From Anthoceros angustus (lineage: Eukaryota; Plantae; Anthocerotophyta), in NCBI GenBank assembly GCA_010909165.1, contig VJWM01000186.1, positions 372,001 to 436,000 on the forward strand: a DNA stretch of 64,000 nt. The letters are read 5' to 3'. This document shows, piece after piece, positions 17,883 through 49,226 of the stretch. A program made the position numbers and the translations under genes. Numbering within the stretch: position 1 is the first letter of the stretch; every line of letters starts with the position of its first letter. The notes under the pieces are model-generated. The model was not told the DNA's origin, searched no databases, and saw nothing but the letters and a program-made list of their open reading frames with translations.

Positions 17883-17885
17883 ATT

Positions 17886-26100: not shown

Positions 26101-26639
26101 GTATCGGGTGCTCGGGCGCATGTGGAGAGGCAATCCAACAAATCGCTCGGATTTTGCCTACTACCGCTGAGCTCCTCAGGCGTTGAAGCTCAGCGCCATT
26201 GCAGCTGGGCGGACCTCAGGAGGGTCGAGGGTGGAAGGGAAGAAGGGCATGGGGACACGGGGCCTTGGTGGCCTTGTTTGGTGGGATGGCGGTGGAGAAG
26301 AGCCCGGGAGGGAGCGAGCGGCCAATGTAGCAGCCCTTGGTAAGTCCGCCACAACCCGGCAGGAGGAGGATAGGGACGAGGCCCCGAAAGAGGTGGGAGG
26401 AAACCAGGACCAAGCCCGAGAAGGGATCGGTGGAGGGACGGGCTAACGAGCAGTCCGGGTTGGGGTCGGGACTTGAGGACCGGACCTAATGTGAGTCGGA
26501 CCTTGAGGTCCGAACCGAGACGGACCACGAGGTGGGACTCGAAGTCAGGCCAAACCGACCCTAAAGATCGGACCCGGGAGTGAGACCGGACCCGAGGTCG
26601 GACTCAGAGGAGAGAGGAGCTGGTCCCGACTATACGTCG
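23138..26639 (+). repeat. Partial long gypsy LTR (family B) inserted into the family A ORF and interrupted by G1
   Basis: Starts TGTGGAC... and is colinear with 26640-30010 and with the reverse complement of the G2 LTRs. It lacks the TATA/R/U5 end. Confidence 0.75.
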
Positions 26640-29600
26640 TATAACGGACTCTCCTTGGGGTTGGGAAATAAGCTGGGTTTGTTTTTTTAGGGTATGGAGT
26701 GTAAAATAAAGGCGGAAAGGAGGAATAAGCAGACGGTACTCGGGTTGTACTCAGGCCCTCACAGACTCGGGGAGATGCTCAGGACCACAAACTCCGGGTC
26801 AAAGCAGGATAAATCGCCAAGTAAAGTAACTTAGAAGTTGGGCGTGAGTTAGGCAGGCGGCGCCCGTGGATGGTCTTGAGTGGTGGGCATCTGCGAGACC
26901 GGGCCGTAGGTTGCGATGGCCGTTATGGCGGTATTCACGCTCCGGGTACGCGGCGGTAATAGTGGCGGGCGTAAAGGCGAGGTAAGCCATGCGAGGCCCA
27001 CAGCGATTCTACGGACAAGCCGCCCGCGGCGGTTACTCCGGCGAGAGAGAAGCGCGGTCATTCTTCAAACAACGCGGCGATTTTTCGCATTCTCTCGCTC
27101 GAGACACGGCTCTCTGGCGTTGTCTTTTTGATTCGAGCACCCTTGGCTTGATTCGACTTGGCGAGGAAGCGGCGACACCCGGCGGGAGGCGGAGATTGCG
27201 GAGCCTCACGCCTCAGTGAGAAAGGAGTGTGAAGATGGGACCCAAGGCGGGCGTGGGAGCCATGGCGCTTGGTGGGCCTGCTGTCGTCACCGCGCTACCG
27301 GACTTGGGCCGTGGGCTGGAGGAGGCGGAGGAGGCTGGTGGAGGGCACTGGACATTTTCGGGCCGTGCGGACCTTGACGTCACCTAGTCAGAATCGCCGG
27401 AAGATGTTGGCGGCGCCAACAAGGAGGTCCGATCAAGAACTGCTGGAGGACCCTAGGAGGTGTGGAGTGGAGGTCACGAGGCGGTTACAACCGGGAGAAT
27501 AGGAGGAGTAGTACGGAACCCACGAAGGTGAAGGGGAAGGTGGCGCGGCGGCCCCTTTTGCGACCGAGGGCGGCGGTCCTCCAGCGGATGGGCGATGTCG
27601 GACCTCTACGGGAGAGGAATGCGTTCGATGGCGAAGATTATCGTCACTTTGGAACATGCTCGGTGGACCACCTTGGCGATAATCTGCTAGTGTTCCTCCA
27701 CGACCTCTGAAGGGAAGCGCCCGGGGGCGGGATAATCTTCGCCGGGTCAATCGGGAAGCTGTGAGGCGAGTGCGAAGCCACCTCCGTCGGCGTTATCGCC
27801 GTTTTGATTCATGTGTGGGGGCACGAACCTCTGAAGGAGGTGAAGAGGAGCACTCGGAAAGGGTGGCCGCTCTAGGCGGAAGGAAGAGGCAGGAGGCCCG
27901 GTCGGAGTAAGAGGTCGGGAGGAGGGCGGCGGGAGGGAATTCGGACTCCATACATGCAGGACCCCCTCGCCACCGGAAGTGTGGGAGGACATCCCTTCCT
28001 CCTCCTGTGCCGGGCGTCGGCCTTGAGCGGCCAGGGGCGAGTTGGCGGTTCCGGTAGCGGCGGGCGCCAACAACAACGGCAGTTTGACCCGGCGGACTCG
28101 GGGAACCGAAGAAGGCGGGCGCCTGCATACCCCGGGCGGTGCCCTTGCCTCCTGTGGTGGCAAGCGGAGGAGGCGTCGAAGAGGCGGAGAGGGGCCGCCC
28201 AAGGCGGGGAGGCCAGCCTCACGGGCACATCATCTCCGACGGGAGAGGAAAAGGGCCAGCTCCGGACCCCTTCCACCTCAAGCCCAGGAGGAAAAGGCGG
28301 AGAAGGAGTTAAGCGGCCAAGAGGGCCAAGGAAGGTGAGAGCTCGGACCTCGGCCTCGGGACCTAAGGGTCCTGATTAGTCAGAGCCCGATCCGGACTCG
28401 CTGATATGGTCCTTGGCGGACGGAGATGCCCGCCCACAGGACTTCTGGGCATCTCCCCAGTGGCCGTGGAAGCAGTTTTGGCTACCGTCATGGGCCGGTA
28501 TGCTTTGGGGCCTCTGGACGGAGAAGACCCAAGTGGAGGCCACCGGAGGAGGATGGTGGAACTTCAAGGCGGTGGGCGGCCCAGGCGAGCAGGCGGAGTC
28601 CCTCGCGTCGAGGAGGGCGTCGGGAGGCGGAGGAGGTCGGGCGGTCCGGAGACCAAGATCCCTTTGTCGACAGTGAAGCGTCTGTGAGGCCCAAGCACGG
28701 TGAGACCTCTGCAAGCGGAGGAGGCGGGCGAAGGAGGCGGAGGAGGTGTCGGGCGGAGCGCCGCGACACAGCGGCAGCTCGGCTAGACCAACACCAAGCG
28801 GCGAGGCTCGAGGTGGCGGCCGGGAGGCGGAGGCAGCGGGTCGAGGATCACTACGGCGTGATCGGGCCGGTGGAGAAAGCGGGGGGTAGCAGCTAACTGA
28901 AGCAGGTGGCAGGTGGCAGGCGAGCAGCGAAGAAGAGATGGAGGCCAGCACGAGAAATAGGGACCTCAGTGCAGTGCGAGAGCGGAGGCGGCGGGGCTGG
29001 AGGCAAGGACACCACAGGCAACTCCAAGGCAGCGTCGAACACAGGATTCTCATGGGAGAATCCAAGACTTGGAGGAGATTGAGCGCCTCGGCTCGCTGAG
29101 GCGGAGGAGAATAGGCGATCAAGGAGTTGGGCGTCGCGGTGAAAAGGCTGGAGGAAGCGAGTCGGGCGGAGATCTGGCCGCTTTGGAGAAGGAAGTGGCG
29201 GACCTGGGTAAGGATGAGCGGAGGGGCGCTGGAGGAGGCGCTTGTCCGTTCGGGAGGCGGAGGAGCTCGGCTCCATGGCGGCAAGTTGGTGGGCTGGCAG
29301 CGAAGGGAGGAGGAACACGTCGGCGGCGAGGCTGCGGGAGGTGTCGGAGGCCGCCTTGGCGGCATCAAATCGGCGGCTTAATTGGCGGCGGAGGCAGGTC
29401 GGCCGGCGGGCAACACGCCAGTGCCGGAGCACCTGGAGGAGAGTACCAGTGCTCGGGCCCATGTGGAGAGGCAATTCAACAAGTCACTCCGACTTTGCCT
29501 ACCGAGCTTCTCAAGGCCTTTGGAGGTGTCGCCACCCTCGGCGGTGGGCCTTCGAGTCGGAAGGAGGAGGCGAAGGAAGGCCCGAGGCGACCAGGGACCT

Positions 29601-30962
29601 TAGGGCTGTTTGGCGGCGCGAGGGGCAGTGGAGGAGGCGGGGCGTGGGGAAGGTGCGAGGTAAGCACTCCACCCCACCATGGAAGGAGGAGGAGGGCCAC
29701 AGGGGGGCCGTGAAGGCGCTGGGCAGCAGGAACCAGGAGGACTCGGTGGGTGAACCATGAGAAGTCCAGTGAGGGAAAACCAGTGCTCGTGAGTCGGACT
29801 TTGTCGGACTCTGAAGAAGAGCGGACCGAGGTCCGGCCTCTGAAATCTGGACTCGAGGTCGGACTCTGGTGGCGGACGGACCACGAGGTCAGGACTCGAG
29901 GAAAAGAAGATCGGACCGAGGTCCGGACTCGGAAAGAAGACGGACCGAGGTCCGGACCCGGGCGGACCTAGAGGTCGGACTCGGTCGAGGCCCGGACCAC
30001 AGTCAGACTCGGGAGGCGGAGGAGCCACCAATCACCAGCCGTGAGCCTTCTCTTGGGGCCCATGTACGAGGGCCCGGGAGATAAGAGAAGATGGGGAGGA
30101 GGATTTAGTGGTGACCGCCGTTGTCAGGCCGCCGCGGTAGCGGCCTGATAGAACCTCGGGGAGAGGTAGGGGCCCGCCTCGCGGATCATCCGATTGGGTG
30201 TGCGCGATTGTCGAGAGCTGGGCCTTGGGCGCCCGGTAGGCGGAATCAGGGGCAACCCCAGCCCCACCACCCACGCGTAGATAGGTGGAATAAGGGAAAT
30301 AGTAGGCGGCCGATTAGGGCGCCCAGGCCATCATTTCGAGAATAGGTGTAATAAAGGCCGCCGACCTTGACGTAGTATAAGAGGGTTGCTCTAAGTAAAG
30401 TATCTTTCTCTTGGTGTTGATGCGTCTTCTTGCGAGGCCCTTTGTGTGCCTTCTTGCTAGCGTGAGTCACGAGTCGGCGGTGCAGCTCGGGAGGCGATCA
30501 AGGTCTGGTGGCCGGACCCTAACGTGTGGTGGTGTGTGGGAAGGCGACCGGGACCCTTGCTCGTCTCGGCGGCGGCCGGCGTCGAGACGCGTGAGCGGAG
30601 GAACTCGGGAGGCGTGTAGAGCCGGACGGAGAGCCAGCGGAGGCGGCGGAGAGGTCCGGACCCGCCACCAGCGATTTTCCCAAGGATAATGTGAAGTGTG
30701 AATGGTGAGAGGAGCGGACCCGGAGGAGGCAGTGACAAACTTGAATGACTGAGCAGGTCCTTAAGCGTTTAGCCACGCTTGAACTGTCCGATTGATATTC
30801 TGGTAGTTAGTCGTAAAAGCGATGAATGTGTGTGGGAGTCAGCGGGTACTACATGAGGTGAGAAGCGATTGAAAGCGTGGTAGACCTATCATTCTCTTGG
30901 GAGCGGACCTCCTTACAACGACGGGATTGTGCGCGGTGGCCGTCGGTGAAAGTCGCGCCACA
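26640..30962 (+). repeat. G1 5' LTR (~4.3 kb, ORF-bearing)
   Basis: Ends ...GCCACA, followed by TTT and the PBS. A TATA-like GTATAAGAG lies at ~30375. Homologous to the G2 LTRs. The left boundary is approximate. Confidence 0.8.
27235..29900 (+). pseudogene. LTR-encoded long ORF (family B) in the G1 5' LTR, frameshifted; unknown function
   Basis: Starts MGPK. Conserved blocks WEPW, GHFRAVRTL/WHLDIF, RKMLAA.NKEVRS..LLEDPRR, VDHLGDN, then a low-complexity linker and an E/R/K coiled coil. The end is approximate. Confidence 0.65.
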
Positions 30963-30965
30963 TTT

Positions 30966-30980
30966 TGGCGCCGTTGCGGG
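30966..30980 (+). promoter_or_regulatory. G1 PBS TGGCGCCGTTGC(GGG), tRNA-Asp type as in Athila-like elements
   Basis: Lies directly after the LTR terminal CA plus TTT. Confidence 0.85.
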
Positions 30981-30999
30981 AATGAGATCGCTCCGTAGC

Positions 31000-33900
31000 T
31001 AGTGGGAAGGTAAGTGTGGATGCGTGGAGGGCGTGGTAGTCAAGAGCAGATTCTTTGAGTGAGCCGGACGTTGTGACCAGCGCTCCAGCGTGACGTGAGC
31101 GGCAGCTCAACGTGAGCTCCGGCCAGCGAGTAACGGTAGACTTGTCGGATCGTGAGGAGGAGCACAAGTCGAGGCGGCGATGGGGAGTGGTTCCTCAACC
31201 CCAGCTGGCGTGGCGATGCAACAACTCGACCAAAGCAAGCATACTCTCTCTTTGGAGAAGGAGAGCGGAAACCGTGGAGGATTTAGGTGTCTCGGGCCTT
31301 CAACGGAGAAGGTTCGGATCGCTCATCCGGTATTCGGGGGTCCTTGAGAAGGGGCATCGACCGGAGGAAGTACCGCCGCAGGCCCGACCTTGAGCATTGA
31401 AGGATGCCTTCTTGGAAAGATTCCGTGGGAATTGACCAAGAAGGCTAAACTATCTAAGCTCGAGAATAGGCGAGGCAAGGCGGAGAAGTTGGGATCGTAC
31501 ATGAGCGGTTCTCTCGGGACGGCACCCCACCACCACCATGCACGGTGCATGTTCGCGGCTTGCCCAAGCCAATGGCTAAGCACGTCTTGCTGTTTGGCGA
31601 GAAGGATGTGAGTAAGGCGGTCCGGTGAGACCTACGAGAATCGATGCAGCGAAGGGCGAGGCGCCTCAGGAGGAAGAAGAAAGAAGAAGCGGGGTCGAAT
31701 CCGAGGATGAAGAGCCCTCGGGAAGGAGGAGAGAGGCGGTACCCGGAGGAAGGAGGAGGACTCAGAAGAAGAATCCGAGGATGCCATGGAGGAGGAGGGT
31801 AGAAGGAATAAGAAGAAAAAAGTGGTGTTAAGCGGAGGTCGAGAAGAAGGAGGTCGTGATGCGCGAGGTTCGCCTTTGAAAGAAGTAGCGGGGTTGAGGA
31901 AGATGCAGGTAATGAAGAGGGTGGAAGAATTGACGATCAACGGTGAAGGATAGAAACGGCGAAGGCGGCCACCACGTTCGGACCCATCTATGGTGTGCGG
32001 TGTGCCAGCATGGGCATTCAAAGCTAGCGCCCCTCGGACCCGTAAACCAAGTGGAGTGACTACGGGAAGAGTCAGGAGGCGGTGGGAGGCGCCAAGTGCG
32101 AGGCGCGCGAGCGGTATCGATGTACCCTACGGCGGACCATCCATGCATCGACCCGTGCACATAAGGCCTCAGAATTCTCCGAGGCGGTGGTCTGTTGTGG
32201 GAACCAGGCACTACTCCAATGTGCCCATACCCCACTCGGCAAAGGGGGATTTTGAGCCTTTGTGTGGGGATTGCAAGCCCGGGGACATGGCGGGCGGTAC
32301 CAGAACCCTCGCTCGAGGGCGGTGCGCTATCGCCACCCGGTGAGGCCGACCCCCCACCCTCTCCCTAAGGCGCGGTGCTACTGATTGAAGATGCACGGTG
32401 GCGGAGTGGGAAGGCGCCAAGGAACTTGGGGGCGGTGGTACGCGGTTGCTAAGGAGGAGAAGGTAGACACTGGAGGTGCAGGTGTCAACGGCCGGAAGGA
32501 GGCGAAAGGAGAAGGCGGTTAAGAGGAAGAAGAATGGAGAGCACCACGGATACGGAGGGCGGGACTCGAAGGAGGAAACCAGCCAGGAAGGCGAGTTGAA
32601 TCGAGGCTGCTCAGAGGAATCACCGAAGAAACCTCCAGCGATAGTAGAAGAGCGGACCCACCACCGTTTCCACGGATGTGGTTCGTGAAGTGGCGGAGAT
32701 GCTTGAGGAGGAGATCCGGCGGGAGTGGTGGCCACCACGCAGGCGGTGGCGGGCGCTAGAAGAATCACAGCGGACACGACTCGTGAAGAGCCGCCACGCC
32801 TTCAAGGTGGGCGGCTTGATGATGGACCAACACACAGGTGTCACTCAGGCAGTTGTTAGAGACAATCCAGTATCGGCAGTCGGAGGGCCATCAAGGAGAC
32901 ACAACCACGCCGAAACGCCTCGGGTCGTAGGACCAAGAACGTGGAGGTAAGAGTGGTATCTCATACGGACCCCGGAGCGCCGGTGGTTCAGGTAGAAATC
33001 GCTGGGTGCGTGATTAAACGTACCCCTGGACACCGGTCAGGAGTCAACCTCATCACGGAGGCCACAGCAAGGCGGTTAGGGTTCACAGCATTTGAGCCAT
33101 CCACCAAAACCCTCAGGATGGCGGACATGTATCACGGCCAGCGGCGGAGTTGTCCGAGTCAAGCAACCATAGCGGGGCACCTACACATTGGACTTCGTGG
33201 TCATCAAGCCCGGGACCTCGGGGTGAGTCTTGTTGGGGCGTCCACAGGCTGGGACTCGCTCGGACAAAACTACACTTGGGAAGGAGATACACTTCAAACC
33301 ACGGGATCGAAGGTAAGGAAGGTGGCGATCACAGGCAAGGACACATCTGCGAAACCGTAAGCACCACAGGGTACACCTCCGCGAAGGCGTGGGGACGATG
33401 AGCGCTGATGATGACTACCCTTTCCAAAAATCTGTGGTCGAAGAAGAGATGGACTACGGAGAGGACACTTTTGGGCGGAGGTGGTCAATTGTTCAGTGGA
33501 GGCGCGCCTAGCCGGAGGGCGAGGGCAGGAGGAGACCCAGCGAGAGGGGGATGGAGGACCCCGTGACCAGGTTTACCTCAGACGAGCTTTTCGAGAGTGG
33601 GGATGCGTGAGGATGAACCTCGGATGGAGGATGGCTTTGGGCGTAGCGAGGAAAGGGAGGCGGTCAATCGGCGATGTGGAAGGCGTGGAGGTCCGGGAAA
33701 ATTCCTAAAATTCCGCAGGAGGTATGCAGTGAGTTGAGCGAGACCTCACCGATTGTTGGGGAATTCAGTGTTTGCTTTCAAGGTCACGGATATGAAGGCA
33801 TTCCAAGCGATGGGCGAACACGGATAGACACGAAGCCGAGGCGGTGCTGTTCGGATTCGACGGTATGCGAATCCAAACACTCGCTCAAGGTCAAGGAGGT

Positions 33901-34546
33901 CTGGACAAATATTTGGAGGCGGACATCATCTTTCCAATCGTAAGCAAATGGGTAGCACCCATTGTCGTCATGAAAGCGGCAAAGGCGGATCCGTGTCTTC
34001 GAGTTGGAGGAAACTCAACGCTCGAGAAGGACCATTTCCCCATGCCCTTCGTGGACGACATCTTGGACAAGGTGGGCGGGTGATGCCTCCTTCTTGGATG
34101 GATACTCGGCTACAACCAATTGCACCTAATTGAGATTTGGGATAAGACAACGTTCACCGGAGTGGGGCGTTTGCTAGCCAAGCGCCTTTGGGATAACGGG
34201 GCACCGGATCATTCATGCGGATGGTGACCAACGTCTTGAGGATTTTCGAGGGACTTCATGGGTATTCTTGGGCGACTTTTGCGTACATGGAGAGGAAGAC
34301 AAACACGTTGGGCACTGCGGAAGTGCTTGGGCGTTGTAAGGAAACCCGGTACATCCATCAGGAATGCTACTTTGGAATGAGGAGGGAATCCTGGGACACC
34401 GTGTAGCGAGATAGAGGTGGACCAAAGATAAGGTCGGGGTCATTCCGGTCTGCACCGCACGATGAAGAGCTGCGAGGATTCCGGCATGGTGGGTTATTAC
34501 AGGCGGTTCATCCGAGGACTTACATAAAAGCGACGCCAAGCCTAAC
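31000..34546 (+). mobile_element. Gypsy G1 gag, protease and RT (non-chromovirus, Athila-like), frameshifted
   Basis: LKDAFLERF (retrotrans gag), CCHC-like knuckles at ~31990-32300, protease DTG(S)GVNLITEATARRLGF, RT KWVAPIVV, KDHFPMPFVDDILDKV, MVGYYRRFI. Confidence 0.88.
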
Positions 34547-34642
34547 TATTGAATAGGTGTTCTCATTAGGGTTTGATATTACTAGATATATGTAGACAGC
34601 ATATAGATTTATTTTAACACCCTTTCATTAGGGTTACGCCCT

Positions 34643-37600
34643 TGTAAATGACTTTTCTTGATAGCCAGCGCGCACAATCCGTGTCGTTGTAGGAAGAAGT
34701 CCGTTCCCAAAGGGAATGATAGGCCCGTTTACGCGTTTGGTGATTCTTACCGTCCTTAGCGCTCGTTCGGTCTCAACACACACTCTAACTACTCTGGCGT
34801 TCACTCGGGGTATGGCCAAGCGTTTGAGACCCGTTCGCGTCCGTATCGTTCACACATCCTTCACGCATCCGGTCCTTTCCTCTCTCCTCTCACGCTACAC
34901 TCTTGATCTTAGAAAACAGCGATTCTGTGATCGGACCTCCTCCGTCGTTCCGGGCCTCTCGTCCGGGCTCTACACACCCTCCGGAGTTCCTCCGGCTCAC
35001 GCGTTCGATCCGTTCGGTGTCGGACGCGGCTCGGGACACGGATCACGATCACCCTTCCCAGCACACACACCACAGCAGCGTTAAGTCCGTCACGGGACCT
35101 TGATCAATCTCCCGGGTACATCGTGCTCGGTGACTCGGGACTCACGTTAGCAGAAGACTCACAAAGTGCGCAGCAGCGGCATCAACACCAAGAAAGATGC
35201 TTTACTAGGCGACCTCGGCCCTCTTATCTGCGCCCAAGGTGGCGTCTTTATTACACCCCTATTACGGTGATAGCCTCGGTATACCCTAATCGACGCCTAC
35301 CCTATCCCCCTATCTCCTTCATGGCTGGGAAGGTCCACAGGCCCGCCTCGGAATGGGTGGTCAATCCCCGTCACAGCGGTTGTGGTGCACCCAATCGGAT
35401 GATCCGTGAGGCGGGCCCCTCCTCTCCCGGAATCATCGGGTTGGGCTCTGGCGGTCGACAACCGCCCGTTACCACGGCGTCATCCTCCTGGCCCCTCCAC
35501 AGGTCCTTGGGGGTGGGGCCACCGGCTATCGGCTCCCCTAAGCGTAAGTCGAAGGGGCTCCTCCTTCTTGCCGCAGCCCGGTCCTCGAGGTCTGTCTCGA
35601 CTCACGAACTTGAGTCGGCTTATTCAGGTCCGGCCCGGCTAGGTCCGACCTTGTCAGGTCCGGACCTCGGTCGGTTGTCGGTCCGGACTTGGTCGGACTT
35701 ATTAGGTCCGGACTTGAGTCCGGACTTCTTAGTCCGGACTTGAGGTCCCTCAGTCGGACAAAGTCAGGACTCCTCCGGGTTTCCTCCCTCACGGGACTCC
35801 TCCGTGGCTCTCCTCGAAGTCCTCAGCTCCCGATCGCCCGTGGCTCGCCGTTGGCCCCTCCTTCCATGGTGAGGTGCGGGGTGCTTACCTCGATCGCATC
35901 CGCGCTCCCTCGTTCTGCTCCTCGGTTGCTCCTCTCGCGCTCCGTCATCTCAAGCAGGGGCCACTAGGGTCCCTGTCTTTGTCCCGTGGCCTTCATCTCC
36001 TTGAGCCTTCCGGTCCGTCCCGTTTGCGGCCGTCGAGGCTTCTCGCCTTGAGCTCGTGGTAATAGGCAAAGTCAGATCGACTTGTTGAATTGCCTCTTCC
36101 ACGTGTGCGGGCACCGATACTCCCTCGCCATAAGTGTTCGGAGGTCTTTGCCCGGCTTGTTGGGCCACCTCTCCCCAGTTGTGGTGGGGCCGGGCTGTAT
36201 CACGAGGCTACAAGGCCTCGGTCACCTCCTGCAATGTTGCTCACTGCTCCGGCTCCGTCGTTTCCTTTGCCATGCTTACCGCCGCCAGCGGCGTTCCCTT
36301 CCGCCTTTCTCGGTGGACCAGCGGCTTCTTTTACGCTTCCGGTGCTCGCGCTCCGTTCATTACGGCCTTTAGCTCATGACTCCTCTCAGCGGTGAGATAC
36401 CTCCGTCCGACTCGGACTTCCTCCGGCTCATACAGCAGCGTCCAACTCCTTGGATAGTCGCCGATTTTCCTCCGTCTTGAGACGGGCGGGCACTCTTTTG
36501 TGCTCGGTCGTGGATTCTCTCGTTGAGAATCACTGCGCTCAAGCGCATCTTGGGTTGTAGCTCCAGTGTCCTTGTCCTCCATCTGCTGCCGCCTCCTTCT
36601 ACCTCCTGCGGTGTACTCGGAGATCCCTATCTCCCGTCGGCCTCCATCTCCTCCATGGCCTTTGTCGCCTTGAGTTAGCCTCGGTGCCTGTGACTCTCTC
36701 CACGGTTCGATCACGTCATGTGATCCGGTCGCTCTTTCGCGGCTTCCGCCGCCGCCTTTACAGGCCTCGCCCACTTGGCGGCTCTGGGCCGCCTCCGAGT
36801 CCCGAGCTCTCTGCTTGTGCCGGGCCTCTTGCCTCTGCTGCGCTTCCCTCTTACGCAAGGTCCTCCGCGCTTGGCCTCCCAGGCTTGCTTGTTTGCCAGT
36901 GAAGAACCTTAACCCGATCTGTGAACCGGGCCTCGCGCTCCGCCACCGGCGTTTCCCCTCGATCCGGCGAGGGACTCCGCCTTTCCTTTGCCCCTCGGCC
37001 GCCTTCACTTGCTCTTGGGTTCCACCATCCTCCTCGGGTGGCCTCCACTTCACAGGTCTTCTCCATGTACCGAGACCCCAAAGCATTCCGTCCATGGCGG
37101 TAGCATTCGCCGTGTTTCTTCCACGGCCGGTGAGGCCCCACAAAGTCCGTAGTGGGAGCCGGCATTTCTCGATCAAGGACCTCCATACCGATCCGAGTAA
37201 GTCGGGGGGGTTCTCGGACCTAATCGGGACCCTCGGGTCACGAGTGGTGGTCGAGTCTCACCCTCTTGGCCCTCTTGGCCTCTAACTCCTTTGTGCCCTC
37301 TTTCTCCACAGGGCTCGGAGGAGGTGAGGGGTCGGGAGCAAGCTCTTTTGCCCCTTCACAGCCGGGGGCAGGGGGCTCGAGGTGGGGCTGCCCGGTGACC
37401 TCCTGCTCCTTGGGCCACGTCCTTCGCCCTCCTTACGCCTCTTGACCTCTTGCCACTCAGGGGCGGGGGTAAGTCACTTAGTCTTTGCGTTGGTAAGCGG
37501 CACCGTCTTCGCCTCTTGCTCCCGGAGTTCGTCGGGGCTCGGTGTCGTTGTTGGTTTGTTACCGGTGCCGGGGCCATAGCCCTCGCATCGGCTCCCTCTG

Positions 37601-39029
37601 TCCTGCTCGGAGGGCACCAAAAGGAGGAAGGGAATCGCCTCCCAAACTTCCACAGGTGGTGAGGGGTTCGCTCGGCGTAGTCAGGAATCCCTCGTCCTCC
37701 TCCTCCGAGTCTTGGTCTTGAAGGGCGACCCCCACCTCAGGCGCCCTTGCACGCTCTACAGCGGGGCCTCCGGCCCCGCCGGGCGCCCGCTCAAGCTCTC
37801 CTCCTTGAGCTCGAAATGTCCCCATACATGAATCGGGTATGGGGTCGGCCGATGGCGAGGCTTCGCTCCTTAGCTTGCCTCCTGAACCGGGCGAAGATAA
37901 TCCTTCCCAGTCGCTCTCTTCCCCTGGGCGCATGCGAGAATACCAGCAGTTATCACCAAGGTGATCCACCTTGGTGGCGAGTTCAATGGACAATGATCCG
38001 GGCTACCGCCCTTACTCGGCATCCGGCGGATCGGATATCAACCATCCGTTGGTTGTCGCTGCGTTCGAGCCTCGGCCGCGGCGTGGGCCCTATCTTCCCC
38101 TTCGCCTTAAGGGGCTCGCACACGCCCCTTCTTCCTCCTTGGCGGTTGTAGGCCATCCTCGGGACCTCAAGGTCCATCGCCTCGGGTCCTCCGGAGGTTC
38201 TTGGATCGGACCTCCTTGTTGATCGCCGCGGCATCTTCGGGCAAACTCCGGACTAGTAGCGTTGTCAAAGGTCGACCATTTGGAACACGTCCAGATGCCA
38301 CTCCACCAATTCCCTGCTTCCTCCGGCCGGGGCCCGAAGTCCGGATAGCGCGGGTCACAATGTTTGCGCTCCACGAGGTCCATGGCTCCCAGACTTGGCT
38401 TTTGGGTGCCATTGCTTTCTCCTCCTCTCTTCTTTGGCTGGCGGCGGTCCGGCACGATGTTCCTCCTTCGCCCGCGTTGTTGCTCCAACCTTGACGGTGA
38501 CGCTCTAAAGTGGCGCCCAAAAGCGCGAGCGGATTGCGGGCGCAAGGGTGAGGGTATGCGGAGGCGGCGAAATGACCTCCCTCCTTGGCGCGCTTGTGGA
38601 AGTGCTGGGCGGGCGCCTCTTCGTTGTCCGTAGCGCGAGTGCATGGCTTACTCGACCCTACGCTTCCCGGCGCCGCGCGGCCGCGGGCGTGAATACCTGC
38701 CTGCGCCTCAGCAGGAGTCACAGCCTCTGCATGCCCGACCTCCACTCGGGGCCGTCCACGTGGCGCCGCCTCGTCATCCTCACGCCTCCGCTCCTAGGTT
38801 ACTTTCCGCGTACTTATCCTATTTTGACTGGGTGGGTTCGGACTTATCCGTTACTCGGCGTAGTCGGAGCTTGCCATAGTGGTGCAGGTCCGTTGTTCAC
38901 TCAGTCGGAGTATACTCGAGCCTCGTCCGGCGCTACCCCAATTTATTCCTCCTTTTCCGCCTTATTTATCCTTCAATCCTAAAAAGCGAAACCCTACTTA
39001 TTTCTTAACTCCCGAGTGCATAGCCCACA
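34643..39029 (-). repeat. G2 3' LTR (4387 bp)
   Basis: Begins immediately after the PPT and is colinear with 44575-49226. Confidence 0.9.
35620..38412 (-). pseudogene. LTR-encoded long ORF in the G2 3' LTR
   Basis: MAPK..VWEPWTSWSANIVT, AAINKEVRSKNLRR, TKVDHLGDNCWYSR, then a coiled-coil region. A matching copy lies in the 5' LTR with ATG at 48595. Confidence 0.65.
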
Positions 39030-39049
39030 TACTCCCTTCTCTCATTGGC

Positions 39050-42000
39050 GTCTCCGCCAACACTATGATACTTCTTCACCCGCCACCCGTTTACCGAGTG
39101 GGCAGCTCTCCATCTAGGCGCCGTGGACGGACCCGTTGTCATATACTTGCACCACTTAGTACGGACCCATCCATCTCGGTGAAGTTTGCGGAAAATGCAT
39201 GTTGACTATCATAAAGGAGGGCGGTCCCTTCCTTTACATACTCACGATTCCATGATCGTGATCGTGCCAAATCTTTTGGTTTTGCACCTGCATCTTCAGG
39301 TGAGCTTCTTCCCATCCTCATGTCTTTGCACAAACCCCAAGAGTCGCTCGGTGGCTTTCCTCTTACGTCCCTTCCATCATTACTCGAAAAGTGGGCACTT
39401 CAAACTCTCGGCATTACGGAGAGTGTCGTAGGTCAAGTAAGGGTCCGTTGTGTGGTCACCTTCTCTGGTCCGGGCATACAGTCGGATGGACTTGGTATCC
39501 GATCATGGGCGTAGTTCACGTGAGTTTATTGATCTGCGGATGAGCCCATTTGTCTTCTCTGTCCCCATTGGCCTTAGGATTGTAGGGTGCCGTCTTGCGA
39601 TGATTGATGCGAAATACTCCGTCATGGCGGCCACCACATCATTAAGGAAATGGGTTCCCCTATCACTTACCAAGCTGCGGACATCCGTGCGGGTTATGAT
39701 GTTCTCGTCAGAATTTGGCCACGGTATTTGCGGAGTCCGTTCTTGCATACCGCCTCTACCCACACAGTGCGATGGTCCGTTGCCACCGGGATGTATCTCC
39801 TTTGTGTGTGTCTTGTCGTGGTGTATGGGTCCAACAAAGTCAATACCCCACTTTTCGAAGGTGCGGTGCCAATATCGGTACTAGCGGCCACGTGTCGTCG
39901 GGGTTGGCTTTCCGATCGGGACAAGCATCACACTTCTTCCTAAGCGGTGGGTGTCCCCATACATTGTTGGCCACCGGTATCCGCTTCAAAATCTTTTGGT
40001 GGTGACTGTCTTGCGTAGTGTCCACCCCAATCCTTCGTGCATTCCCTTGGGCTCCTGTCTGCGGTTGCAAGTACCTTCGTTCTACTCTCGGCCCTAATTT
40101 GAACACACACCGTTGTACATTGAAGGGTCGAGCATAGTGCGAATGCCTCCCTCATCCGAGTCGGTTGAGAGCTCCATTCCCAGTACCGCTCTATTTCTTC
40201 GTGGGTCGGACGACGGCGGCCCTCCTTCTCCGCACTAAGGCTGCCAGTTCTCGTAGCTTGGGGTTCGGTCGGTGGGCTCCTCGGTTGTACTACTGCGGCA
40301 ACCAATGTCTCATCCAGGAGCGCATCTTCACGATCTCTCAACACACACTCTGTTTTCAATCGTGAAATCGCATTTTGGTCTTGCCTCCCTTGTCTTGTTT
40401 CCACTTGACGTGAACTCCTGCGGCAACAATATCCACCTTGCTATCCGTCCGGACGGTCCGTCTTATTCACCGGATGCTTGAGCAAAGTGGTCTACATAGA
40501 ACACAAACTCCAGGTAGTAGGTAGTGTCGAATTTCTTGGACATATACCATACCCGTGCTTGGCCTCTGTTGTGTATTTTCGTTCGCGTGGGTGGTATCGT
40601 AGTATACGGGATAATCCTTGTCGTCCTTCGGCCTCCGATAGCAAAGCGGACACATCTACATACACATGAAATTTCTGCTCGATCCGGTCCTCTTAGGACG
40701 TGCGCCAAGGTGTTACGCCCGAAGGCCTCCTCTCGCTCCACACCGGTCCAAACCTCCTCCTTGATGATTACATCAACTTAGCGCCCTCGCAAAGTCCTTA
40801 ATAAACCGGTAGTATCCCACCATTCGAAACCTCTCGGCTCCTTTAGGTTCGTGTTGGAGGCGGATGACCGGACCTTGTCTGGTCCACCTCGATTCCAGCG
40901 GCACCCGATGTCACAAGATTCCTCCTCATTCCAAAGTAGCATTTCTCGGGTGTAGGCTCAATTGAGTCTCCGGCGCTCAAGCACCTTCTTAGATGCCCAA
41001 GGTGTTTGTCACCTGCTCCCCATGCACACAAAATCATCCAGAATATCTCCATGAAGTCCCTCGAAGTCACGGAAGGCGTTGGTCACCATCGCATGAGCGA
41101 CCACAGGCGCTCGGTCATCCCAAAGGCACTTCTCTTGTAGGCAAGCGTACCCCACTCGTAGTGAAGGTCGTCCCGGTCAAACTCCCTTAGGTGCAATTGG
41201 TTATATCCGAGTAGCCATCCGAGGAAGGAGTAAGTAGTCCGTCCAACCACCTTGTCCAAAATGTCGTCTGAATGGCATCGGAAGTGGTCCTTCTCCGTTC
41301 GTTGAGCTTCCTCAATCTTGGCATACCGAATTTGTCTGTTTCTTGGGAACCACCACATAGCGACCCACTGACCACTCGCTGTTGGCGATGGGGAAAATGA
41401 TGTCTGCCTCCGGTACTTATCAAGGACCTCCTTCACCTTGATCGAATACTTGGGGTTGAGCTTGTATTGTCGGATTGGGGCACGCTCCACGGCTTCAAAT
41501 CGATCTTATGCTCTCCCACTTCTTGAATGCCCTTCATGTCCGTGACCTTGAAGGCGAACACCTCATAAAACTCCCCAGCGCTTTAGTCCTTCCTTGGTCC
41601 GGAGGCATGCCTTTCTTAAACTTGAGAATTTTTGGCGGACCTCCACTTCTTCCACGTCGTCCGGGTTCACCGTCTCCGTTCCCTCGCTGCGTCCAAACCC
41701 CTCGTCCTCCTCTCGGGGATCGTCCTCGCATCCCCATTCTCTGAAGAGCTCGTCGGAGGTGAATCGTGTTACTCCTTGATGTCACTTTTCCTTGGTCCGA
41801 CTCTTGTTGTCTCCCCTTGTCTTTGGTCCGACCTCCTCTTCACTTCCTTCCTCCGGCCCGTTGTGGCGTTTACTCAAAACAATCAATCACTTCCGCACCA
41901 AAGGCATCCACGGTAGTCCATCTCCTCCTCGGACCCGGATCTTGGCGAAAGTCGCCTCCTCGGAACTATCTTGTTCGTCGCCGTGGAGTCCTCCATATAT

Positions 42001-44400
42001 ACCCTTGTAGTGCTCACGGTTTCCACAATAGGTGTCCTTGCTCCGGTGATAGCAACCTCCCTTCGCACCTTAGGGTCCCAGTCCACCGGCTTGAAGTGAA
42101 TCTCCTTCCTTCCAAAGTGTAGCTTTGCAGGCCAACCCGACCATGGCCGCCCAACACCTCATACCCTAATGGTCCGGCGGTTTGATCACAACAAAATCCG
42201 GTTTGTAGGGTGCGCTATGGTGGCCAAGACTCGGTTAACTCCCCGCGGATCTCTTCTTGACATATACGCCATTCTCGAGTCTTCGTTGAGGTTGAAGGAT
42301 GTGAAGCCCAATTTTCGTGCGTGGCGGTGATGAGGTTGACTCGGACCCGTGTCCAGCAGTACATCCTTGATGATACATCCAATCTCCACTTGTACCACTG
42401 CTGGCAGGTCCGTATGGGACACCACCCTCACTTCAACTACCCTTCACGGCTTTGGTGCTCATGTGGGTTTCCCCTAACGGCCCGGACCTCTTGTCGGTAT
42501 TTGGGTTATCCCTCGGTGTCGAGGAAAGGACTGGTCCGATTCATCATCGGTCCACATTAAAGGCGAGGCTTCTACCCCAATCGAGGATCCTGCTGCGTCC
42601 TCATCCTCTCCCGGGTCACCGTGTTACGGTATTCTCCGGATGCTTGCGCATTTCCTCCTGCAACATCTCGGTCACCTCCCGGACTACGTCCGGTGGAAAA
42701 CGTCGCCGTCGCGGGACCGTTCCTTCTCCACATCTGGAGAACTTCCTTGGGTAATCCCTCGCGAGCTGCCGTCCAGCCCTCCTTCATCGGTCGGATCCTC
42801 TGCTGGTATTTGGTTTGATTGCCTTCCTCGTGTGACGCTTCCGATCTTGTTCTTCTTCAAGCTGGCGCCTTTCTTCGCTCCTTCCTTGACTCTGATGACA
42901 CCTCAAGATTTCCATGACTCCCTTCCTTTCACCCCACCGTACCTTCTTGTTCTTTTCCATCTCGCGTACCTCAGGAATCTCTTCCCACTCCATGGCCCAG
43001 AGCATCTTGACTTGCCGTCAGTGCGGTCTTAGGAGGTGGCGTTGGTGGTCGAGTTCTCCGCTTGGTGTGGCATATCGTACACGTCCTTGTCGGGGTTGGG
43101 ACATAGCGTCTTGCTGTCATATGCCGGCCCTTGCATCGCCACCGGCTCGAAGTCCCCATTACCACCTCGTTGGAGTGCGGACACGCGTTGGAGTAATGGC
43201 GAGATTCCGTTCCAACGGACCACGGCCGTCGGAGGATACGAAGGGCTCCCATGCGGTCTTTGCATCGGTGGGGCCCGTTGTATTGGACCTCCGGTTGGCG
43301 GATACATGGTTTTGGGATATCGCGGCCCGGAGGGGCTTCACATGCACGATAGGCCTCTTCCTCCTCGGCCTCCTCCTCGTATTCGTAGTCCACTTGATGC
43401 ACGGCCTTGAGGCGGTTGGACTTCGAATGGCCGTGTTCTTGGCACCACGGCACACGCGTTCGCCGTGGTCGGTGTTTTCCGCGCTCGGTCCTTAACACAG
43501 TTTATCGCGGTCCTCTACTCTCTTTATCACTTTTCCGGGTCCTCCGCGGACACCGCTACCTCCTTTGAGGGAGTCGGGTCCGGAGCTTCTCGGACGATCT
43601 TGGTGTCACCACCTCCTTCTTACCACCTTCTTTTTAGCGGGGCTTTCTTGCTCTTCTTCTTGCGGGATACTCTTCCTCGCTAGAGACCTCCGTCTCTTCT
43701 TGGACTGCTCCTCCTCCGAAGACACCTCCGATTGGTCTTCCTCCTCCTCACGAAGACTCTTCCTCCTCGAGTCCCGAACCCCGTTTCTTCTTCTTCTTCT
43801 TGCCTCCTTGGATTTCTTTATCCTCGATGTAGCGATTCCTCGTAGTTTTCGGCCGCTCGACCGCCTTGCCACGTCCTTCTCGGCGGCGGGCGTGCACAGC
43901 CATGGGTTTGGCTAGACCGGCGCGAACCACCGTCCGCTTGCATCGTGGTATGGGTTGGATGCCGATCCTCGGGCATAGAACCGCTCGATGTCTGAGCCCG
44001 CTTCTCCTTCTTCCTCGCTTGATTTTCCAACTTTGATAATACCTCCTGGTGATCCCTCGAAACCGTTCTAAGAAGGCATTTTCAAAGCTTCAAGCGAGGC
44101 GGGTGGGGCATTCTCCGGTGGTCGGTACTTTCTCCGATACCATTGAGCGGTCCTCGGAGAACCCCTTGGAAAAGCTGGATGAGCTCGACTCCCTCTCCGT
44201 TGAAGTTGGCTTTGGACGAAGTCCTCCACAAAGGTCTCGCATCCCGCTCCTTCTTCCCTCCGAATATGGAGTCGCTTGTTTGGTCGTAGGGGCCATGGCT
44301 GCGCCATCGATGGGTTAGGCGTGGCATCCTACCTTCTTCCGTTGGCGTCCCTCGTACCCGTGCTCTTGGTCCGATTCGACCACGTTCTCCCTCCTCGATC
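39050..44400 (-). pseudogene. G2 gag-pol (gag, PR, RT, RNase H, integrase; no chromodomain seen)
   Basis: LKMPS/LEAFENAFLE gag region, HYSNACP knuckle, VLLDTG protease, IRQYKLNPKYSIKVKEVLDKY and KRSAFG RT, EFVFYVDH RNase H, SDRGTHFLNDVV integrase, C-terminal VNGWRVKKYH just before the PPT. Confidence 0.9.
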
Positions 44401-44574
44401 GGCGGTGCTCTCTCGTTGGGTTTGGCGTCTCTCCTCTCACGGCTCGGGAGGCACGCGAGGTGTCCGATCCTCCCACGGTTCACTCTTGGCCGTCGCTCGA
44501 CCGCCACGCATTCACTTACCTTCTCTTCCTAAGGGCGCACTGCGGCCTGACCGATTTCATTCCCGGCGCCAAAA

Positions 44575-47500
44575 TGTGGCGGACTTTTCTTGATGGCGGT
44601 AGGCGCGCACAATCCGTGTCGTTGTAGGAAGAAGTCCGTTCCCAAAGGGAATGATAGGCCCGTTTACGTTTGGTGATTCTTACCGTCCTTAGCGCTCGTT
44701 CGGTCTCCACACACATACTCCTAACTACTCTGGCGTTCGTCAGGCCGGTATGGCCAAGCGTTTAGGACCCGTTCGCGTCCGTATCGTTCACATACATCCT
44801 CACGCATCCGGTCCTTTCCTCTCTCCTCTCACGCTACACTCTTGATCTTAGAAAAGGCCGCGGGTTCCCGGACCTCCTCGTCGTTCGCGGGCCTCTCGTC
44901 CGGGCTCTACACGCCCTCCGTTCCTCCGGCTCACGTTCGGTCTCCACACACATACTCCTAACTACTCACGTTCACCGTCTCGGTATGGCCAAGCGTTTAA
45001 GGACCCGTTCGCGTCCGTATCGTTCACCGCCTCACGCATCGTCCTTTCTCTCCTCTCCTCGCTACACTCTTGGTCTTAGAAAAGCGCGGTTCTGTGATCC
45101 GGACCTCCTCCGTCGTTCCGCGGGCCTCTCCGTCCGGGCTCTACACACCCTCCGGAGTTCCTCCGGCTCCACGTTCGTCCGTTCGGTGTCGGACGCGGCT
45201 CGGGGCGAGCACGGATCGATCACCCTTCCGCACACCACAGCGCGTTAAGTCCGTCACGGGACCTTGATCAATCTCCCGGGTGCCGTGCACCTTTCGGTGA
45301 CTCGGGACTCACGTTAGCAAGAAGACTCACAAAGGTGCAGCAGCGGCATCAACACCAAGAGAAAGATGCTTTACTAGGCCTCGGCCCCTCTTATCTGCGC
45401 CCAAGGTGGCGTCTTTATTACACCCCTATTACGTGATAGACCGGTATACCCTAATCGGCCGCCTATTTCCCCTATCTCCTTCGCCGTTGTAGGTGGGAAG
45501 GTCCACAGGCCCTCGGAATGGGTGGTCCAATCCCCGTCCACAGTTGTGGTGCACCAATCGGATGATCCGTGAGGCGGGCCTCCTCTCCCGGAATCACAGC
45601 CGGGTTGGGCTCGGCGTGGTCGACAACCGCCGTTACCACGGCGTCATCCTCCCTGGCCTCCTCGGTCCGCGGTGGGGCCACCGGCTCCTCCCCTAAGCGT
45701 AAGTCGAAGGGGCTCCTCCTTCTTGCCGCCGGTCCTCGAGGTCTGTCTCGACTCAGAACGAGTCGGCTTATTCAGGTCCGGCCGGCTGGGTCCCCTCGGG
45801 GTCGGACCTCGGTCGGTTATTAGTCCGGACTTGAGTCGGACTTATTCGAGTCCGGACTTGAGTCGGACTTATTAGTCCGGACTTGAGGTCGGCCTCCCTC
45901 AGTCCGGACAAAGTCCGGACTCACGCCACCGGGTTTCCTCCCTCACGGGACTCCTCCGTGGCTCTCCTCGAAGTCCTCCCTGTTCCCGATCGCGTGACTC
46001 CTTCGTTGGCCCCTCCTTCCATGGTGAGGTGCGGGGTGCCTCGATCGCATCCGCTCCCTCGTTCGCTCCTCGGTTGCTCTCTCGCGCTCCGTCATCTCCA
46101 GCAGGCCACTAGGGTCCCTGTCTTTGTCCCGTGGCCTTCATCTCCTTCAGGCCTTCCGGTCCGTCCGTTTTGTGTCGAGAGGCTTCACGCCTTCAGGAGC
46201 TCGGTGGTAATAGGCAAAGTCAGATCGACTTGTTGAATTGCCTCTTCCACGTGTGCGGAGCACCGATACTCCCTCCGCCATAAGTGTTCGAGGCGTCTTT
46301 GCCGGCTTGTTGGGCCACCTCTCACCCGGTTGTGGTGGGCGGTATCACGCGAGGCTACAAGGCGGCCTCGGTCACCTCCTGCATTGCCAGTTGCTCACAC
46401 TCGGCTCGTCGTTTCCTTCCATTGCCCGCTTACCGCCATAGCGCGGCGTTCCGCCTTTCTCGGTGGACGGCGGCTTCTTTTACGCTTCCGTGCTCGCGCT
46501 CCTCCGTTCATTCGGCCTTTAGCTCCGCTCCTCTCCAGTGATGATACCTCCGTCCAGACTCGGACTTCCTCCGGCTCATACATGGCAGCAGCGTCCAACT
46601 CCTTGGATAGTCGCCGATTTTCCTCCGTCTTGAGACGGGAGCTACTCTGTTTCGTGCTCGAGTCGTGGATTCTCTCGTTGAGAATCACTGCTGCTCAAGC
46701 GCATCTTGGGTTGTAGCTCCAGCGTGTCCTTCTTGTCCTCCATCTGCTGCCGCCTCCTCTACCTCCTGCGGTCGGAGATCCCCTATCTCCCAGTCTTGGC
46801 CCTTACTCCTCCATAGCCGCTGTCGGCCTTGAGTAGCCTCGGTACTGTGGACTCTCCACGGTTCGATCACGTCATGGTAGTGATCGCTCTTTGTGACTTG
46901 CTCCTTCGCCGCCTTTACAGGCCTCGCCCACTTGGCTCTGGCCGGGCCGCCTCCGCCAGTCCAGCTCTCTGCCTTGTGCCGGGCCTCTTCCGCCTCTGCT
47001 GCGCTTCCCTCTTCGCTGCAAGGTCCTCCGCCCCGCTTGGGCCTCAGCTTGCTTTGTTCGCCTGGTGAAGAACCTTGGCCCGGTCTGTGAACCGCCGGGC
47101 CTCGCGCTCCGCCACCGTTTCCCTTCCTCGATCCGGCGAGGGACTCCGCCTTTCCTTTGCCTCGGCCGCCTTCACTTGCTCTTGGGTTCCACCATCCTCC
47201 TCGGGTGGCCTCCACTTCACAGGTCTTCTCCATTGCACGAGACCCCAAAGCATTCCGTCCATGACGGTAGCAGCCGTGTTTCTTCCACGGCCGTGAGGCC
47301 CCACAAAGTCCGTAGTGGAGCCGGCATTTCTCGATCCAGGACCTCCATACCACCATCGGGAGTAAGTCGGGGTGGGTTCTCGGACCTAATCGGGACCCTC
47401 GGGTCGAGTGGTGAGTCAGTCTCACCCTCTTTGGCCCTCTTGGCCTCTAACTCCTTTGTGCCCTCTTTCTCACAGGGCTCGGAGGAGGTGAGGGGTCGGG

Positions 47501-49226
47501 AGCAAGCTCTTTTGCCCCTTCACATGGGGGCAGGACCCGGCTCGGTGGGGGCTGCGGTGACCTCCACTCCTTGGGCCACGTCCCTTCGCCCTCCTTCGCC
47601 TCTTGACCTCTTGCCACTCGTGGGCGGGGGAAAGTACCGGCACCTTCGAGGTCTTTGCGTTGGTGGCACCGTCTTCCGCCTCTTGGCTCCGTTGAGTTCG
47701 TCGGGGCTCGGCGGCCGTCGTGGTTGTTGGTCAGCCGGTCTGCGGGCCGCCAGCGCCCTCCGGCATCGGCTCCCTCTGTCGCTCGGAGGGCACCAAAAGG
47801 AGGAAGGGGAATCGCCTCCCAAACTTCCACAGGTGGTGAGGGGTTCGCTCAGGGCGTATGGAGTCAGGAATCCTCCCGGTCGTCCTCCTCCGAGTCGCTT
47901 GGTCTTGAAGGCGACCCCCACCTCAGGCGCCCTTGCACGCTCTACCGCGGGGCCTCCGGCCTTGGGCGCCGCTCAAGCTCTCCCTCCTTGAGCTCGAAAT
48001 GTCCCCATACATGAATCGGTATGGGGTCGGCCCCGATGGCGAGGCTTCTCGCTCCTTAGCTTGCGTGCCTCTGGCCGCAGGCGAAGATAATCCTTCCCAG
48101 TCCGCTCTTCCCATTGGGCGCATGCGAGAATACCAGCGAGTTATCACCAAGGTGATCCACCTTGGTGGCGAGTTCAATGGACAATGATCCGGGCCGCCCT
48201 TACTCGGTCGGCGGATCGGATATCAACCATCCGTTGGTTGTCCGTGCGTTCGAGCCTCGGCATCGCGGCGTGGTGGCCCTATCTTCCCCTTCGCCTTAAG
48301 GGGCTACCACGCCCCTTCTTCCTCCTTGAGCGGTTGTAGGCCATCCTCGGGACCTCAAGGTCCATCGCCTCGAGTCCTCCGGAGGTTCTTGGATCGGACC
48401 TCCTTGTTGATCGCCGGCATCTTCGGGCAAACTCCGGACTAGGTATTGTCAAAGGTCCAGACCATTTGGAACACGTCCGGATGCCACTCACCAATTCCCA
48501 CCCTCCGGCCGGGCCCGAAGTCCGGATAGCGCGGGTCACAATGTTGCGCTCCACGGTCCATGGCTCCCAGACTTCCGTCGGCTTTTGGGTGCCATTGCTT
48601 TCTCCTCCTCTTGTTCTTTGTAGGCTGGCGAGTCCGGCACGATGTTCCTCCTTCGCCGCGCGTTGTTGCTCCAACCTTGGATGCGCGCTCTAAAGTGGCG
48701 CCCAAAAAGCGCGAGCGGATTGCGGGCGCAAGGCTGAGGTATGCGGAGCGCGGCGGGCAGCCTCCCTCCTTGGCGCTTGTGGAAATGCGCTGGGCGGAAG
48801 GCGCCTCTTCGTTGTCCGTGCGCGAGTATGGCCTCGACCCTCGCTTACTGCGGCCTTCGCGCGCCGCGGGCGTGAATACCTGCGGCCTCGGCAGGTTCAG
48901 TCTGGCCTCTGCATGCCCGACCTCCACTCGGGGCCGTCCGTGGCGCCGCCTCGTGCATCCTCACGCCTCCGCTCCTGGGTTACTTTCCACAGGCGTACTT
49001 ATCCTATTTTGACACTGGGTGGGTTCCGGACTTATCCGTTACTCGGCGTGGTCGGAGCTTGCCATAGTGGTCTGCAGGTCCGTTGTTCCTCCAGTCGGAG
49101 TATACTCGAGCCTCGTCGCGCTACCCCAATTTATTCCCCACTTTTCCGCCTTATTTATCCTTCAATCCTAAAAAAAACAGAAACCCTACTTATTTCTTAA
49201 CTCCCCAGGGAAGTGCATAGCCCACA
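44575..49226 (-). repeat. G2 5' LTR (4652 bp, includes a 237-bp internal tandem duplication)
   Basis: Followed on the minus strand by TTT and the PBS. The duplicated unit GGTCTCCACACACATACTCCTAACTACTC occurs at ~44702 and ~44939. Confidence 0.9.

Follow-up and report, generated by a model that had tools for sequence, protein, structure and literature searches.

Can a plant retrotransposon carry a gene inside its long terminal repeats (LTRs), and how would such a gene be expressed? The question is raised by a 64,000-nucleotide stretch of Anthoceros angustus DNA (assembly GCA_010909165.1, contig VJWM01000186.1, forward-strand positions 372,001 to 436,000; hereafter the window, numbered from its first base), for which an earlier reading, referred to below as the original prediction, had proposed Ty3/gypsy elements with LTRs of about 4.4 kb that encode a large protein in U3. 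We examined one complete element, G2, together with the LTRs of two further subfamilies, G1 and copy A, and found a sense-strand frame of ~2.65 kb, in keeping with the 2.6–2.8 kb predicted, that is collinear in four LTR copies of the three subfamilies. Both ends of this frame are constrained as protein, the N-terminal domain (N-domain) as strongly as reverse transcriptase (RT) and the C-terminal block nearly so, and we consider it very probable that a real gene lies inside the LTR.

A shared reading frame inside the LTRs

The landmarks of G2 and of the related copies are as follows.

34643–49226, minus strand: G2, full-length Athila-like Ty3/gypsy element of 14.6 kb, with LTR pair, primer-binding site (PBS), polypurine tract (PPT), near-exact target-site duplication (TSD) and empty site
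44575–49226, minus strand: G2 5' LTR, 4652 bp
34643–39029, minus strand: G2 3' LTR, 4387 bp
44555–44571, minus strand: PBS of tRNA-Asp/Asn type, shortened in G2 (G1 copy at 30966), motif as printed in Table 1 of PMC2844528
39030–39041, minus strand: PPT adjoining the 3' LTR, overlapping the last pol codons
39030–44330, minus strand: gag-protease-RT-RNase H-integrase, frameshifted; zinc-binding domain found in the G1 homologue
45920–48595, minus strand: frame, G2 5' copy, ATG at 48595, end approximate, about 66 breaks
35780–38412, minus strand: frame, G2 3' copy (predicted to be the expressed one), ATG at 38412, approximate end
47960–48595, minus strand: N-terminal conserved domain, about 210 codons, with coding constraint
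46370–47200, minus strand: E/K/R/Q/A-rich region, likely coiled coil (from composition only)
45930–46380, minus strand: C-terminal conserved block and charged tail
45740–45930, minus strand: short CGGAC-core repeat array directly after the frame, in all four copies, with 6–12 cores
26640–30962, plus strand: G1 5' LTR, second subfamily; frame from 27235 to ~29790
30965–34546, plus strand: G1 internal region, resuming at 56236–57670 beyond a copia element; 3' LTR outside the window
23138–26639, plus strand: copy A, third subfamily, LTR truncated by G1; frame from GTG 23807 to ~26450

The LTR limits that had been proposed for G2, 4.4–4.65 kb, were borne out by the TG/CA ends, the PBS, the PPT, flanks that match at four of five bases (AGGGG and AGGGC) and an empty site in a copia element. 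Both LTRs begin with TGTGGG, end with CA and align end to end. Their difference in length is due mainly to a 237-bp segment that is tandemly duplicated towards the end of the 5' LTR only (44697–45177); among the contigs of sequencing run X1 is a form lacking about one unit of this duplication. The PBS lies 3 nt (TTT) past the LTR in both G2 (44571) and G1 (30966), and in G1 it reads TGGCGCCGTTGC after CA-TTT, a motif that is also printed for the tRNA-Asp PBS of FIDEL (PMC2844528) and for Athila junctions (ATHILAfinder, bioRxiv 10.64898/2026.03.20.713144). Three separate insertions (copy A at 23138, G1 at ~26640 and G2 at 49226) begin at one homologous point, so that what integrates as the LTR is the full 4.4 kb, rather than an internal region joined to a short LTR. 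The G1 start has no clean TG, and the last ~6 bases differ between the two LTRs of G2.

The frame begins 596–670 bp into the LTR, where the original prediction had placed it, and is collinear over 868 aligned codons between copy A and the G2 5' copy and over 848 between G1 and the G2 3' copy. Taken alone, each copy spans 882–923 positions with 52–67 breaks. The start codon is ATG in three of the four copies, but copy A has GTG at the homologous position (23807) and none of the four is open; the N-terminal motif string originally quoted turned out to be a composite over several frames and copies. The predicted product consists of a head of ~210 residues, a Pro-richer linker, a short GMLWGL block, a coiled-coil stretch with 35–46% E/K/R/Q, the conserved C-terminal block and a charged tail.

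Coding was assessed with a frameshift-tolerant codon alignment between subfamilies, from which a sense-minus-antisense score was derived and compared with 40 neutral simulations with patchy rates. The N-domain scored +0.32 to +0.36, a value reached by none of the 40 simulations in each of three pairs, next to +0.39 for the RT control (0 of 40), and the C-terminal block (last ~140 codons) scored +0.17 to +0.34 (0–1 of 40, three pairs). The LTR leader and the post-frame LTR were at the null (17–25 of 40). The linker displayed a high synonymous share (0–1 of 40); an earlier neutral null had been slightly liberal, in that the post-frame LTR beat it too on third positions. We also trained a codon model on 902 codons outside the LTRs and scored it against dinucleotide shuffles. 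In all four copies, z was 2.4–5.2 for the N-domain and 3.6–5.6 for the coiled coil, and ranged from -0.6 to 4.8 for the linker, 0.1 to 1.1 for the leader, -0.3 to 2.4 for the post-frame LTR and 2.3 to 6.1 for the controls. By composition, the middle of the frame looks coding. The claim that the blocks are conserved as protein between subfamilies is upheld by constraint in the N-domain and C-terminal block and by codon bias in the coil, but the linker, middle block and coil are null in pairwise comparison.

Candidate expression signals and competing readings

Three features, all on the minus strand, bear on where transcription might start and how the frame might be reached.

45360–45420, minus strand: TAATAAAG, GATAAGAG and a pyrimidine-rich initiator-like motif, the predicted U3/R boundary, with a putative function (G1, 30349–30410; G2 3' LTR, from 35253)
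44514–44522, minus strand: perfect splice-donor motif AAG/GTAAGT, 44–52 nt after the PBS start (G1 copy at 31007–31015)
38976–38996, minus strand: U-rich acceptor-like site at +50 of the 3' LTR (homologous AG at 49169, 26689 and 23195)

In all three copies that reach that far, TAATAAAG followed by (T/G)ATAAGAG lies 3.7–3.8 kb into the LTR, with the pyrimidine-rich motif ~26–30 nt downstream of the latter. The original prediction had the gene enter the LTR by relocation of the PPT; a purine tract ~60–80 nt before TAATAAAG might be a remnant PPT or might belong to the promoter. The placement of the frame in U3, as originally proposed, gains from this conserved TATA-like/initiator-like pair downstream of the frame, but G2 also has a TATA-like GATAAATA near +59/+67 of its LTRs. 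Given the motif pair and the proximity of the frame to the PPT, the frame is probably located in U3.

The sequence AGGTAAGT occurs three times on both strands of the 64 kb, in two cases behind the two PBSs, and four of the 11 occurrences of T5+N0-3(Y)AGG are at the four LTR starts. The post-PBS site was the top donor among 682 GT dinucleotides in G2 and 438 in G1, and the LTR-start site, 50–58 nt in, was the top acceptor among 1325, 726 and 336 AG dinucleotides in G2, G1 and copy A, respectively. In Arabidopsis, the env-like open reading frame (ORF) of Athila is expressed from a spliced message of the full-length RNA (PMC7197481). A 1635-nt contig of run X4, whose status as RNA is a guess and whose sample is shared with run X1, contains four short collinear pieces of the frame and was not counted as expression.

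Taking these signals together, we lean modestly towards a reading in which a U3 frame of ~900 codons gives rise, through a spliced sub-genomic message of the 3' LTR copy, to a soluble accessory factor of the element that acts in the nucleus. The promoter would lie ~3.75 kb into the LTR, and the genomic RNA, starting there and ending in the 3' LTR, would hold the gene once, downstream of pol. Reverse transcription would then copy the gene into both LTRs, with the 5' copy silent upstream of the promoter. If the post-PBS donor were joined to the acceptor at the start of the 3' LTR, gag-pol would be spliced out and the 3' copy made available, much as in the Athila env-like message. Considered on its own, this spliced route seems slightly better than an even bet, judging from the motifs. 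The product, with its conserved head, low-complexity linker, long charged helical stalk and conserved tail, may be a dimeric regulator that binds nucleic acid or chromatin, acting in a manner similar to the extra-ORF proteins of Retand and Ogre.

Several observations weigh against this spliced-message reading. No LTR copy is open, and indels are not biased towards multiples of three (16 of 156 within the frame, 8 of 70 after it). The sense-minus-antisense scores of the linker, middle block and coiled coil are at the null (4–31 of 40 simulations, nine pairs), some antisense readings also score in the codon model (z up to 4.1), as does the post-frame LTR (z up to 2.4), and frame-free periodicity is weak in the N-domain (pooled p 0.07; p<0.05 in two of five pairs) and null outside it, with controls at p 0.0005–0.04. 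Moreover, the four copies represent three subfamilies of one genome, and the pairs share copies and are not independent. With regard to splicing, the weights were set by hand for motifs already seen, the post-PBS donors are homologous and hence of one origin, the acceptor of the G2 3' LTR is only tied second, and several ATGs precede the start codon after the acceptor (four in the G2 3' LTR). The proposed function has no homologue, fold or RNA backing.

An unlikely but coherent alternative is that the frame is a real LTR gene with a promoter of its own in the first 600 bp, in which case both copies, as well as solo LTRs, could be expressed without gag-pol. The GATAAATA word at +59/+67 in G2 favors this arrangement, but it is not kept in copy A or G1; GGATAA boxes at +168 to +223 are found in all four leaders, a donor-like GTAA(G/A) at +343 to +398 precedes a pyrimidine-rich stretch, and the upstream ATGs in the leader fit such a promoter. 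There are parallels in the separate promoter of the extra gene of Grande (PMC7264820) and in the U3 promoter for Sag in mouse mammary tumor virus (MMTV; PMC9412291). However, a promoter at the start of the LTR gives no account of the conserved pairing of a post-PBS donor with an acceptor at the LTR start.

The breaks in the frame raise the question of whether it still functions. Comparison of the two G2 LTRs gives 267 small indels, equally dense within and outside the frame, and 120 substitutions, 48 of which are isolated from gaps. The gag-pol region is broken like the LTR frame (longest stop-free runs of 166–176 versus 253–308 codons). A copia element at 10018–18197, of similar apparent age (2 substitutions and 0 indels in 173 bp of LTR), keeps an open stretch of 608 codons. 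Run X1, which may itself be the source sample, placed 6529 short contigs on 39000–56300, 2806 of them at 99% or better. Its summed depth, which is not equal to copy number, was 780–2930 over G2, higher on the LTR than on the internal region, and 51 or less over the copia in which G2 sits. On the N-domain, the short-read contigs of X1 disclosed 27 indel places versus 5 substitution places. This pattern is consistent with an abundant family of recent origin and with an assembly whose GC-rich repeats were never polished, and the breaks are likely to be mostly errors of long-read assembly. Among duplicated pairs in the window, the indel load per kb was 62 between the GC-rich G2 LTRs, 19–41 in three other pairs and 0 in 173 bp of copia LTR, and the indels were mildly enriched at CpG (124 of 267, with 102 expected).

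A further reading, which we regard as improbable, is that the frame no longer functions: an additional gene would have entered U3 in the distant past, served while the subfamilies were separating, and since decayed through real small indels. All four copies are broken by indels without a frame-preserving bias, the middle two thirds lack pairwise constraint, and the X1 indel places mostly hold a minority share of the summed depth, each of which would fit decay. Against decay, gag-pol is equally broken although the G2 LTRs are only ~1.2% apart in isolated substitutions, the copia of similar apparent age has kept its long open stretch, and the length of the frame stays at 880–920 positions across three subfamilies.

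It appears very unlikely that transcription starts near the 5' end of the LTR, which would make R/U5 very long and the frame part of it, an extra ORF preceding gag on the 5' side like ORF0 of rice Retrosat2 or Ogre ORF1. Extra ORFs at the 5' side are known from Tekay and Ogre, but this arrangement would require a strong-stop DNA of ~4 kb, the TATA-like and initiator-like pair is downstream of the frame in three of three copies, and ORF0 has been described upstream of gag-pol and outside the LTR. Finally, the notion that there is no gene, with long frames arising from GC- and purine-rich LTR DNA and motifs from shared descent, draws on the rarity of stops at 60–65% GC, the lack of a database homologue and the weak periodicity, but it is largely refuted and has only the slimmest chance of being correct, as the strand-specific constraint on the N-domain equals that on RT and is absent from flanking LTR of similar composition, and the codon-model signal beats dinucleotide shuffles.

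Lineage, function and genomic setting

G2 is a Ty3/gypsy element, with LTRs, PBS, PPT and the order gag, protease, RT, RNase H and integrase all present. Several of its features match Athila in REXdb (PMC6317226), namely the domain order, the Asp-type PBS, the 5-bp TSD, the size and the lack of a chromodomain and aRH. The tRNA-Asp/Asn PBS lies behind a short AT-rich spacer, and the TSD is supported at four of five bases plus the empty site; REXdb reports a 5-bp TSD in 95% of Athila elements and sizes of 7.3–22.8 kb. Pol ends at the PPT, with no chromodomain found, and a scan of three sense frames, weakened by frameshifts, detected none of the motifs of aRH, the additional RNase H domain that marks Tat (Ogre, Retand, TatI–III). 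Because basal Tat elements without aRH (Z1/Z2) exist (PMC13468544) and the features scored do not separate them from Athila, we label G2 Athila-like. Phygy and Selgy (4-bp TSD, tRNA-Trp or -Ala PBS, 4.4–10 kb) were considered and rejected, their features not being those of G2. As non-chromovirus LTRs reach about 5 kb in REXdb, the length of the LTR alone is not new.

Searches for relatives of the product returned nothing usable. A 74-aa unbroken piece of the N-domain found no homologue among 105 candidates from longer proteins, 340 metagenome contig stretches, 29 viral contigs or the Atlas, and a four-row alignment of the middle block found none among 5510 candidates; Atlas matches were limited to unnamed clusters (0.92 or less). 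A HMMER scan of 1.84 billion representatives gave a lone match to an 11-fold repeat protein, which at 24 bits for a single repeat was rejected as summed noise. These blanks are weak, since the positive control, an 80-aa integrase piece, also came back empty (0 of 24, 0 of 30 and three chance bacterial loci). Pfam gave no meaningful match for 14 LTR-frame fragments (20 proteins scanned) or for 8 fragments (9 proteins); among these short unbroken pieces there was no match to PF03078, PF04195 (TRP28) or the plant mobile domain (PMD). A suspected likeness of one short motif to PF20167 was without Pfam support, and folding the 74-aa piece as a single sequence gave one helix at pLDDT 57.5, a model that was not used. 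Rfam had no match in 23000–49400.

No transmembrane segment is common to the copies: in a 19-residue scan of any sense frame, the top hydropathy was 0.66–1.24 in three copies and reached 1.69 in a single G1 window only. A membrane or envelope role is therefore disfavored; anti-silencing, put forward in the original prediction, is a possible role. By analogy with Retand, whose antisense ORFs carry TRP28 and often Smc-like domains and have been proposed to encode DNA-binding regulators (PMC11963269, PMC7264820), the product might be a soluble nuclear regulator of the element, a suggestion we hold tentatively. A more doubtful idea is that a plant retrotransposon lineage has moved this ~900-residue regulator into its LTR and that the protein could bind the CGGAC array, which is placed after its stop codon and ahead of the promoter. 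Retroviral trans-activators and the VANC proteins of VANDAL elements offer parallels. If true, every LTR would be an independent cassette with a trans-activating or anti-silencing function and the site it acts on, which would explain the high copy number of a CpG-rich family with 60% GC.

The window is filled by a nest of plant retrotransposons stacked within one another. Copy A, inserted at 23138, breaks an unrelated coding frame of another element; G1 (from ~26640) is inserted within copy A; a copia element (34547–56235, plus strand, LTRs of ~230 bp) sits in the RNase H of G1; and G2 is inserted in the 5' LTR of that copia, whose 3' LTR (56004–56235) represents the G2 empty site with both flanks joined. 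Relatives of this copia occur in runs X2 and X3, which have another organism code, and their contigs cover almost none of the G2 LTR. The young copia at 10018–18197 (minus strand) contains a 1.35-kb internal tandem duplication (12245–13586 and 13604–14937) and a GC-rich tandem pair of ~300 bp each (16208–16827), and a non-autonomous CACTA-type element lies at 58143–59769, bounded by terminal inverted repeats, with CTC as its 3-bp target duplication. A second orphan gene family (18499–23137 and 61549–64000, plus strand) has a TATA-like box near 18765, an ATG near 19497, a conserved head, a linker and a long coiled coil, and is partly duplicated in tandem (18499–20281 and 20276–22040). It has no Pfam match, the ends of its element were not found, and eight pairwise comparisons with the LTR-borne N-domain indicated no homology (within or at the edge of shuffles).

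Relation to known accessory genes

Among retroviruses, HIV (human immunodeficiency virus) nef overlaps the LTR, and the LTR-encoded proteins of MMTV and HIV are far smaller than the product considered here. As with MMTV sag/naf in U3 (PMC9412291), an accessory gene copied to both ends, a reading frame lies inside both G2 LTRs; MMTV differs in being a vertebrate retrovirus with an unrelated protein and no sequence link. Within plants, G2 resembles Athila, a non-chromovirus lineage, in its tRNA-Asp-type PBS, 5-bp TSD, size range, lack of chromodomain and aRH, and sense extra gene past pol. In Athila, however, the env-like ORF lies between pol and the 3' LTR, encodes transmembrane segments and matches PF03078 in 16% of elements, whereas in G2 nothing separates pol from the PPT, past which the extra gene is found in the LTR, twice per element, with no shared transmembrane segment and no PF03078 match on short fragments. 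Soybean Diaspora (PMC1142308), of the Athila group, is similar in its Asp PBS, pol stop near the PPT, lack of an internal env-like gene and long LTR, but the available part of its description reports no lengthy extra ORF, and the LTR is about 2.5 kb from junction lengths.

The extra ORFs of Retand and Ogre (TRP28/PF04195, PMD/PF10536, Smc-like coils; PMC11963269, PMC6317226) likewise encode large accessory proteins of orphan-like character, which have a conserved domain and in many cases an Smc-like coiled coil. They differ in occupying the stretch from pol to the 3' LTR, in most cases on the antisense strand, and in belonging to elements with an aRH, with Retand LTRs of 315–1194 bp; the G2 frame is on the sense strand within the LTR and has no PF04195 match on LTR fragments. 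ORF0 of Retrosat2, RIRE3 and RIRE8 (PMC3485330) is an orphan extra ORF with Ka/Ks below 1 in elements with LTRs of ~3 kb or more, but it occurs once per element, upstream of gag-pol, in grass elements.

Extra genes of plant LTR retrotransposons have been placed in the internal region (PMC7264820). We looked for a prior description of a plant Ty3 element with a gene inside its LTR and found none in the literature covered, which takes in few subscription papers; the accessible parts of PMC7497039 and PMC13469084 contain nothing on an LTR-borne gene, and a phrase on ORFs in PMC6673714 refers to ORFs between the LTRs, not within them. The paired rates of sense extra ORFs in REXdb (TatII, 23% at the 5' and 26% at the 3' side; Tekay, 33% and 18%) may conceal the same layout. 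The LTR-borne frame is a real feature and a variant on the accessory-ORF theme, for which we infer a mechanism.

Plant retrotransposon LTRs are usually taken to be non-coding, and a constrained gene of 2.65 kb gives one reason why some are very long. A gene in the LTR is present in two copies per insertion and in one per solo LTR, and annotation restricted to the DNA between LTRs would miss it. The frame offers a new protein family, together with a testable splice prediction on the role of retrotransposon accessory genes.

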